A stretch of DNA of 499 nt from sequence record EF517072.1; one strand, written 5' to 3'. This DNA comes from a phage. This document shows, piece after piece, positions 1 through 499 of this stretch. Under the pieces are notes generated by a model. That model was given only the letters and a program-made list of their open reading frames with translations, searched no databases and had not been told where the DNA came from. Within the stretch, counting starts at the first letter, position 1, and each line of letters starts with the position of its first letter. The translations under genes and the position numbers were made by a program.

Positions 1-2
1 TT

Positions 3-239
3 CAGGCAATCTTAGAGAAAGATATGCTGCATCTATGTAAGCAGGTCGGCTCAGGTGCGATTGTCCCCAATGGTAAACAGAAGGAAATGATTGTCCAGTT
101 CCTGACACACGGTATGGAAGGATTGATGACATTCGTAGTACGTACATCATTTCGTGAGGCCATTAAGGACATGCACGAAGAGTATGCAGATAAGGACTCT
201 TTCAAACAATCTCCTGCAACAGTACAAGAGGTGTTCTGA
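3..239 (+). CDS. 5.5: Gene 5.5 protein (H-NS-binding host-takeover protein), 5'-truncated by the window edge; C-terminal ~78 codons plus TGA stop
   Basis: Frame 3 is open from the window edge (codons from nt 3: Q-A-I-L-E-K-D, then MLHLCKQVGSGAIVPNGKQKEMIVQFLTHGMEGLMTFVVRTSFREAIKDMHEEYADKDSFKQSPATVQEVF) to TGA at 237-239. The ATG at 24 is therefore internal, not the start. The stop overlaps the ATG of the next gene (TGATG), and the position immediately upstream of the recognisable gene 5.7 and 5.9 matches T7 gene order. Inferred total length of about 99 aa fits T7 gp5.5 if roughly 20 codons lie upstream of the window. Assignment is by synteny and partial sequence recollection. Confidence 0.8.
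   Translation, partial: QAILEKDMLHLCKQVGSGAIVPNGKQKEMIVQFLTHGMEGLMTFVVRTSFREAIKDMHEEYADKDSFKQSPATVQEVF
228..233 (+). promoter_or_regulatory. Ribosome-binding site (Shine-Dalgarno GAGGTG) for gene 5.7, embedded in the 3' end of gene 5.5
   Basis: AAGAGGTG at 226-233 is complementary to the 16S rRNA 3' end, with a 5-nt spacer (ttctg) before ATG 239. Confidence 0.7.
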
Positions 240-448
240 TGTCTGACTACCTGAAAGTGCTGCAAGCAATCAAAAGTTGCCCTAAGACTTTCCAGTCCAA
301 CTATGTACGGAACAATGCGAGCCTCGTAGCGGAGGCCGCTTCCCGTGGTCACATCTCGTGTCTGACTACTAGTGGACGTAACGGTGGCGCTTGGGAAATC
401 ACTGCTTCCGGTACTCGTTTTCTGAAACGAATGGGAGGATGTGTCTAA
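239..448 (+). CDS. 5.7: Gene 5.7 protein, 69 aa; small inhibitor of host sigma-S-containing RNA polymerase
   Basis: Complete ORF from ATG 239 to TAA 446-448, translating to MSDYLKVLQAIKSCPKTFQSNYVRNNASLVAEAASRGHISCLTTSGRNGGAWEITASGTRFLKRMGGCV, which I recognise as T7 gp5.7. A Shine-Dalgarno GAGGTG at 228-233 lies 5 nt upstream of the ATG. The start overlaps the upstream stop and the stop overlaps the downstream start by one nucleotide each. Confidence 0.9.
   Translation: MSDYLKVLQAIKSCPKTFQSNYVRNNASLVAEAASRGHISCLTTSGRNGGAWEITASGTRFLKRMGGCV
433..439 (+). promoter_or_regulatory. Ribosome-binding site (Shine-Dalgarno GGGAGGA) for gene 5.9, embedded in the 3' end of gene 5.7
   Basis: GGGAGGA at 433-439 with an 8-nt spacer (tgtgtcta) before ATG 448. 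The motif also encodes the Gly-Gly of the gp5.7 C-terminus (MGGCV). Confidence 0.75.
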
Positions 449-499
449 TGTCTCGTGACCTTGTAACTATTCCACGCGATGTGTGGAACGATATACAGA
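448..499 (+). CDS. 5.9: Gene 5.9 protein (RecBCD nuclease inhibitor, DNA mimic), 3'-truncated by the window edge; first 17 codons only
   Basis: ATG at 448 followed by an open frame to the window end, translating to MSRDLVTIPRDVWNDIQ, which matches the N-terminus of T7 gp5.9 as I recall it. A strong Shine-Dalgarno GGGAGGA at 433-439 lies 8 nt upstream. The start overlaps the gene 5.7 stop (TAATG). Confidence 0.85.
   Translation, partial: MSRDLVTIPRDVWNDIQ

Follow-up and report, generated by a model that had tools for sequence, protein, structure and literature searches.

The gene 5.5-5.7-5.9 block of bacteriophage T7 is already known and is among the best-characterised phage host-takeover modules, and the structures of two of the three proteins have been determined (PDB 5LGM; PDB 8B1R, 9GMB and 9GMD). 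Wild-type gp5.5 binds the central oligomerisation domain of H-NS and also binds tRNA, giving a complex with H-NS and tRNA (PMC8501957 and works cited there). The second protein, gp5.7, inhibits RNA polymerase with a preference for the sigma-S form, which builds up via (p)ppGpp in T7 infection; it acts on the sigma-70 holoenzyme too, less efficiently, and is required for growth of T7 on stationary-phase cells (bioRxiv 10.1101/262279). Substitutions R24W, H38R or C68Y in gp5.7, or frameshifts in gene 5.5, allow T7 to escape dCTP-deaminase and dGTPase defences, and substitution of R24 abolishes gp5.7 activity (bioRxiv 10.1101/2021.04.26.441389). The third, gp5.9, forms an acidic dimer, a parallel coiled coil with an N-terminal beta-sheet as its brace. 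By imitating DNA it fills the RecB arm/DNA-binding site of RecBCD, with an IC50 of ~1 nM, given as about 1.3 nM for the wild-type protein (PMC9836394). The DNA-capture site of MukBEF is also blocked by gp5.9 (PMC7617805; PDB 9GMB and 9GMD).

According to the published experiments, the block would act on the host at several points. gp5.5 would bind the H-NS oligomerisation domain together with tRNA and so lift the action of H-NS; gp5.7 would bind host RNA polymerase, preferring the sigma-S form, and stop transcription of phage DNA by the host enzyme; and the gp5.9 dimer would fill the DNA-binding sites of RecBCD and MukBEF by mimicking DNA. The retron Ec48 has been reported as being triggered by gp5.9. 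An earlier sequence-only reading of the DNA analysed here had assigned H-NS binding to gp5.5, inhibition of sigma-S RNA polymerase to gp5.7 and a block of RecBCD to gp5.9. The literature agrees on each of these, adding tRNA as a ligand of gp5.5 (PMC8501957), the sigma-70 holoenzyme as a target of gp5.7 (bioRxiv 10.1101/262279) and DNA mimicry as the means by which gp5.9 acts (PMC9836394). What is now known of the block goes beyond that summary and takes in the action of gp5.9 on MukBEF and the escape from nucleotide-depletion defences that follows loss of gp5.7.

Identity and gene layout

The window, by which we mean the whole stretch of 499 nucleotides that was analysed, aligned without gaps to positions 16912-17410 of the T7 reference V01146, with 493 of 499 positions identical (98.8%) and six mismatches. 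When it was compared by megablast with 50,697 phage records, 189 records matched, all of them phages and nearly all named for enterobacterial hosts. The best matches were all Escherichia phage T7 (99.0% over window positions 1-498, 893 bits, E = 0), and the top T7 alignments coincided with the annotated genes 5.5, 5.7 and 5.9, just as had been expected of a BLAST search against T7 from the sequence alone. The gene order in the matching T7 records is 5 - 5.3 - 5.5 - 5.7 - 5.9 - 6. By nucleotide identity (above about 95%) the window falls within the species Teseptimavirus T7, at 98.8% with no gaps, as judged on 499 bases. We conclude that the window is almost certainly a fragment of the T7 middle (class II) region, carrying gene 5.5 (partial), gene 5.7 and gene 5.9 (partial) on one strand.

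The 3' part of gene 5.5 lies at 1-239 on the plus strand, read from base 3 as codons 22-99 and closed by a TGA at 237-239; its first 21 codons are upstream of the window. Gene 5.7 (239-448, plus strand) is complete and encodes 69 amino acids, from the ATG at 239-241 to the TAA at 446-448. The 5' part of gene 5.9 follows at 448-499 on the same strand, starting with the ATG at 448-450 and comprising codons 1-17 of 52 (448-498) and the first base of codon 18. In V01146 the corresponding genes are at 16851-17150 (5.5), 17150-17359 (5.7) and 17359-17517 (5.9). Each junction is a one-base stop/start overlap, TGATG at 237-241 between 5.5 and 5.7 and TAATG at 446-450 between 5.7 and 5.9. The three consecutive small open reading frames described previously are all present as genes, but only gene 5.7 is complete. 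It can also be seen that the GC content of the window is 46.9%, and not near 48% as had been given; the latter figure is close to that of the same stretch in reference T7 (48.1%), and the gap between the two is accounted for exactly by six G:C to A:T changes.

The view that this is a known T7-type 5.5/5.7/5.9 cassette was borne out by the 493/499 match to T7 and also by family and structure matches. The gene 5.5 fragment matched Pfam PF11247 (Phage_T7_55) with an E value of 3.6e-53 and 178.3 bits (cut-off 25) over profile positions 22-99 of 99, and PHROG 1452, which is annotated 'Gp5.5-like host HNS inhibition'. The gp5.7 encoded in the window is the same as T7 gp5.7 at 69/69 residues and the same as chain A of PDB 5LGM over residues 1-69 (E 7.4e-43); it matched PHROG 1334, while no Pfam family was matched by gp5.7. 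R24, H38 and C68 are all present and, as follows from the identity of the proteins, the gp5.7 of the window would be expected to inhibit both sigma-S and sigma-70 RNA polymerase. Residues 1-17 of gp5.9, which form the N-terminal beta-strand segment, are identical to those of T7 gp5.9, the chain found in PDB 8B1R, 9GMB and 9GMD, and the full-length T7 protein matches those structures along with Pfam PF25708 and PHROG 9014. The Asp and Glu residues of gp5.9 that contact RecB, for example D38, E39 and E45 (PMC9836394), belong to residues 18-52, which fall past the right edge of the window.

Phage lambda Gam resembles gp5.9 in being a small acidic dimeric DNA mimic at the DNA-binding site of RecBCD, but the two have no sequence or fold similarity and Gam uses another subset of RecBCD contacts (PMC9836394). 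Gam is not encoded in the window.

On the minus strand there is an open reading frame of 116 codons at 2-352, which we regard as a chance frame opposite coding sequence. As a candidate gene it was rejected, since it has no Pfam or PHROG match and stop codons cut it in 13a, 3A_8767, EG1 and CQ615, four of the five natural relatives compared. The earlier statement that no gene lies on the reverse strand can be kept in this sense, although a frame of that length does exist.

Distribution and conservation of the block

No match was found by megablast among 5,426 complete E. coli genomes and 72,556 plasmids. The best matches thus do not lie in a bacterial chromosome, an outcome that the sequence-only reading had set against its own assignment. 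Given its absence from the E. coli genomes and plasmids searched, the block belongs to lytic phages alone. The gp5.5 family as a whole is represented in 577 phage records, whose hosts are Klebsiella, Escherichia, Yersinia, Salmonella and others, mostly enterobacteria.

The gene order of the block is kept in 10 independent T7-like contigs and in T3. The relatives 13a, NC-A, 3A_8767, EG1, CQ615 and T3 carry the same block with the same stop/start overlaps, and their gp5.7 differs by 0 or 1 residue. Natural Teseptimavirus and Teetrevirus relatives differ from the window at 6-13% of nucleotides, with a mixed spectrum of substitutions. The nearest natural relative that we found is 13a, which is 93.8% identical, and the natural Teseptimavirus range is 87-94%. 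In T3, gp5.5 is only 49% identical, whereas 5.7 and 5.9 depart little from those of T7. Further afield, the 5.5-5.7 pair persists in T3, Serratia phage SM9-3Y, Klebsiella phage RCIP0028 and Dickeya phage DchS19; beyond 5.7, gene 5.9 is absent in RCIP0028, and in DchS19 an unrelated open reading frame stands in its place. Across these four phages gp5.7 is 80-100% identical, whereas the identity of gp5.5 falls to 39-54% in the more distant members. In gene 5.7 of T7-like contigs, 6-15 nucleotides differ against only 0-1 amino acids, which indicates strong purifying selection on gp5.7.

The block can be lost in culture. T7 isolate K has nonsense codons in both 5.7 (W52*) and 5.9 (W13*), and isolate K115 has lost 5.5, 5.7 and most of 5.9 by deletion, whereas in the window all three frames remain open. 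We conclude from isolates K and K115 that the block is dispensable in the laboratory.

Six G:C to A:T differences and their origin

The identification of the window as T7 holds for the block, but the DNA is a mutated copy and not wild type. The six positions at which it differs from T7 are 226 G>A, 227 G>A, 361 C>T, 418 C>T, 465 G>A and 499 G>A (plus strand); all six are G:C to A:T transitions, they affect 1.2% of sites, and three are synonymous. Compared with T7 (V01146; AY264774), the outcome is an unchanged gp5.7, one substitution in gp5.5 (R96Q), a probable one in gp5.9 (G18S), the three synonymous changes and a shortened Shine-Dalgarno sequence of gene 5.7 (GGGAGGTG to GAGGTG).

The adjacent GG>AA change at 226-227 converts the gene 5.5 codon CGG to CAA, giving R96Q, and lies at the 5' edge of the gene 5.7 Shine-Dalgarno sequence. 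Arg96 is invariant in eight gp5.5 homologues (39-95% identity) and in 10 further T7-like contigs, so that in the window the C-terminal motif SPATVR(E)V is interrupted by a Gln at 96 where homologues have Arg. On sequence grounds the R96Q copy would still belong to PF11247 by descent, which is not in doubt for an otherwise identical protein, but the function of gp5.5 may be impaired. At 361 the C>T change is synonymous in gp5.7 Cys41 (TGC>TGT), and EG1 and CQ615, both natural relatives, have T there too; the one at 418 is synonymous in Arg60 (CGC>CGT), and all five relatives have C. The G>A change at 465 is synonymous in gp5.9 Val6 (GTG>GTA), with A also in 3A_8767, EG1 and CQ615. That at 499 alters the first base of gp5.9 codon 18 and would turn GGC into AGC, hence G18S, if the next two bases are T7-like; G18 is invariant in T3 and the 10 T7-like contigs.

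At four of the six sites the T7 base is kept by five natural relatives, indicating that the window carries the derived state. These four private variants were present in none of the 10 public contigs that encode an identical gp5.7. No record identical to the window was found in any collection searched; the exact 33-mer across the GG>AA variant had 0 matches in viral, genome (185,579 species genomes) and metagenome contigs, and full-length gp5.5-R96Q and gp5.9-G18S (with the rest of each protein assumed to be wild type) were absent on exact look-up from the protein collection.

We compared the spectrum of these changes with that of natural divergence and with that of laboratory isolates of T7. 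Differences between T7 and its natural relatives are G:C to A:T in 52 of 222 cases (23%), the remainder being ~38% A:T to G:C and ~38% transversions, and at the natural proportion the chance of finding 6/6 G:C to A:T changes is ~2e-4. For isolates K and P the spectra were obtained by direct comparison of the deposited genomes. Relative to wild type they carry 413 and 305 substitutions, respectively, 94% of them G:C to A:T and ~80% at a 5'-purine-G, with a mean of 5.2 and 3.8 substitutions per 499 nucleotides and several adjacent doubles. The window has 6 per 499 nucleotides, 4/6 at purine-G, the latter being a small sample. The wider set of isolates K, P, P82 and K115 (AY264775-AY264778) resembles the window likewise, with 94% G:C to A:T changes at 0.8-1.1% of sites and a preference for purine-G. 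Nitrosoguanidine is reported to favour G:C to A:T changes in T7 (PMC5850294).

Because both the kind and the density of change match those of isolates K and P, we think it probable, with moderate confidence, that the window comes from a laboratory line of T7 that had been treated with a chemical mutagen of the nitrosoguanidine type and that is absent from the collections searched. The amino-acid changes at invariant residues (R96Q and the probable G18S) fit with relaxed selection in culture. Isolates K and P, which both show deletions in the early region, have 24 substitutions in common, whereas within the window isolates K, P and P82 share none with the DNA analysed here. The lack of shared substitutions, like the absence of a matching record, counts against a mutagenised lineage; it excludes identity with these three isolates, but not a mutagenised origin. 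We take isolates K, P, P82 and K115 to have come out of the nitrosoguanidine work of Bull, Hillis and co-workers; the titles of their GenBank records give isolate names only. The mutational signature points to a probable laboratory-mutagenesis origin, which matters wherever the source data are taken to be natural. It is this signature of the copy that is new here, since the block itself is well studied and carries little weight as a discovery.

It could be argued that the DNA is wild-type T7 and that the differences are artefacts of template cytosine deamination, of sequencing or assembly error, or of deliberate alteration of the reference. Deamination damage likewise yields only C>T and G>A, and such an explanation would be in keeping with the presence of the variants in no public record, contig or protein searched. 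We consider it unlikely, however, as 1.2% is very high for an error rate in a consensus, random edits would not be all G:C to A:T, and the density and purine-G context of the changes match those of real mutagenised T7 genomes.

A wild T7-like phage in which the differences are ordinary natural polymorphism is quite unlikely. Teseptimavirus relatives do carry the block at 87-94% identity, and 361 T and 465 A both occur among them, but the nearest of these relatives (13a) stands at 93.8% against 98.8% for T7, and the mixed natural spectrum, with 23% G:C to A:T, is at odds with the 6/6 seen in the window. Both amino-acid changes, moreover, fall at residues that are invariant in all natural homologues examined, and the four private variants are all missing from the 10 contigs with an identical gp5.7. 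That two of the six changes are also met in natural relatives runs against a mutagenised lineage.

The same spectrum is compatible with a load of G:C to A:T changes acquired in vivo, through a host or engineered cytosine deaminase or through dCTP depletion during replication, in place of a chemical mutagen. T7 is indeed a target of a dCTP-deaminase defence, one with a link to gene 5.7, but the escape mutants are given as point mutations in 5.7, 5.5 and 0.7, and hypermutation is not described (bioRxiv 10.1101/2021.04.26.441389). The bases next to the mutated C (3 CC, 2 GC and 1 TC) form no deaminase-type motif, and the gp5.7 of the window is wild type; we regard an origin of this kind as highly improbable. 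With only six sites, nitrosoguanidine cannot be told apart from other causes of G:C to A:T change, among them hydroxylamine, heat, cytosine deaminases and dCTP shortage. Finally, a bacterial chromosome, prophage or plasmid with T7-like genes in another context is effectively refuted as the source, with no megablast match among the E. coli genomes and plasmids, the exact 33-mer absent from the 185,579 species genomes and 189/189 matching records being phages.

Translation signals and the 5.5-5.7 junction

Genes 5.7 and 5.9 each have a strong ribosome-binding site of their own beside the one-base overlap at which they start. The Shine-Dalgarno sequence of gene 5.7, as read from the sequence, is GAGGTG at 228-233 on the plus strand, 5 nucleotides before the ATG, in place of GGGAGGTG in wild type. 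The predicted duplex with the 3' end of 16S rRNA is -11.6 kcal/mol for T7 against -7.1 kcal/mol for the window. T7 and five natural relatives all share the same element ACGGGAGGTGTTCT at this site. For gene 5.9 the Shine-Dalgarno sequence is GGGAGGA at 433-439 on the plus strand, 8 nucleotides before the ATG, with a predicted duplex of -10.2 kcal/mol. Given this arrangement, the three genes may well be translated as a coupled unit from the long transcript made by T7 polymerase.

In wild-type T7 an mRNA hairpin is predicted at 210-231 (plus strand), in which UCUCCUG at 210-216 pairs with CGGGAGG at 225-231 and covers the gene 5.7 Shine-Dalgarno sequence. Folding of a 41-nucleotide segment gave -10.8 kcal/mol for T7 and between -9.2 and -11.1 kcal/mol for five relatives. 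In the window the stem is lost through the changes at 226-227, and an alternative fold is predicted at -5.3 kcal/mol. The predicted stem is similar in T3; SM9-3Y and HZ2R8 retain part of it with other bases, and the Klebsiella and Dickeya phages lack it. No covariation was seen for the gene 5.7 hairpin, the stem bases being invariant across close relatives. Masking of the gene 5.7 ribosome-binding site by the hairpin is a prediction only, from modelled folds. It is conceivable that the six changes are an in-vivo trace and that the GG>AA change, by unmasking and weakening the gene 5.7 ribosome-binding site, is an adaptation that resets gp5.7 dosage in response to defences sensing gp5.7 activity, but we find this barely plausible and prefer the origin from a mutagenised laboratory lineage.

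Other elements were sought in the window. There was no T7 promoter within 3 mismatches and no Rfam match at E<=1, and signals resembling sigma-70 promoters or terminators were at chance level only.

Upstream of its ATG, the frame of gene 5.7 is open over 194-238 on the plus strand, opening after the TAA at 191-193 and lying at -1 relative to gene 5.5. On this reading of the frames, 194-238 is the only stretch in which the annotated 5.5-5.7 frameshift fusion could possibly be formed. A search of the literature for direct evidence of a 5.5-5.7 frameshift turned up nothing beyond a secondary mention, which cites Dunn et al. 1983. The fusion is annotated in V01146 only as a 'possible gene 5.5-5.7', a two-piece CDS, and annotated fusions of this kind make up PHROG 17900, in which gp5.5 occupies positions 23-100 and gp5.7 positions 102-170 of 170.

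Substitutions in the window and disruptions in laboratory isolates

All six differences between the window and reference T7, at window positions 226, 227, 361, 418, 465 and 499, are G:C>A:T transitions, and together they affect 1.2% of the window sites. The same mutation spectrum and density are seen in the heavily mutated T7 laboratory isolates K and P; however, K, P and P82 have none of the six changes (0/6), and no public record in the collections searched matches these variants.

The block is disrupted in two laboratory isolates. In isolate K (L004, 307-674), TGG>TGA nonsense mutations interrupt both 5.7 (W52*) and 5.9 (W13*), while isolate K115 (L007, 855-1250) carries a deletion that starts within gene 5.3 and ends at the last codons of 5.9. 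We therefore conclude that the entire 5.5-5.7-5.9 cassette is dispensable during laboratory passage.

A predicted hairpin over the gene 5.7 Shine-Dalgarno sequence

Over the 5.7 Shine-Dalgarno sequence, T7 and five natural relatives share a predicted mRNA hairpin (UCUCCUG/CGGGAGG, window 210-231; -9 to -11 kcal/mol), whose stem does not vary among close relatives. Since the hairpin is predicted to mask this site, translation of 5.7 would be contingent on ribosomes completing 5.5. It can be seen that a GG>AA change in the window destroys the predicted structure.

Conservation and variation of the block among phages

The 5.7 product is close to frozen, as 6-15 nucleotide changes yield only 0-1 amino-acid changes (window 239-448; loci L008-L027), and identity remains at 80-100% even when the Klebsiella and Dickeya phages are included; the neighbouring gp5.5, by contrast, falls to 39-54% identity in the more distant phages. 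In phage T3 (L013, AJ318471, 701-1364) gp5.5 is 49% identical to its T7 counterpart, whereas only 8 nucleotides separate each of its genes 5.7 and 5.9 from the T7 version. This disparity between the T3 and T7 sequences suggests a recombination boundary close to the 5.5/5.7 junction.

Gene 5.9 is not universal. In Klebsiella phage RCIP0028 (L015, 985-1676) an exonuclease gene directly follows 5.7 with no intervening 5.9, and in Dickeya phage DchS19 (L016, 1221-1583) an unrelated 120-aa ORF takes its position. On an ENA metagenome scaffold (L018, 2531-3001), the gene at the 5.5 position has a product of 156 aa, rather than the usual 99 aa, that matches PF11247, and it adjoins an HNH endonuclease gene. 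This could be a form of gp5.5 that has been extended or fused.

We also noted mislabelled public entries for Serratia phage SM9-3Y (L014, 1003-1212) and phage HZ2R8 (L017, 813-1004), where a gp5.7 homologue is called 'HNS binding protein', a label probably inherited from the 5.5/5.7 fusion entry, and a gp5.5 homologue 'protein Rad9 / SCC2 homolog'.
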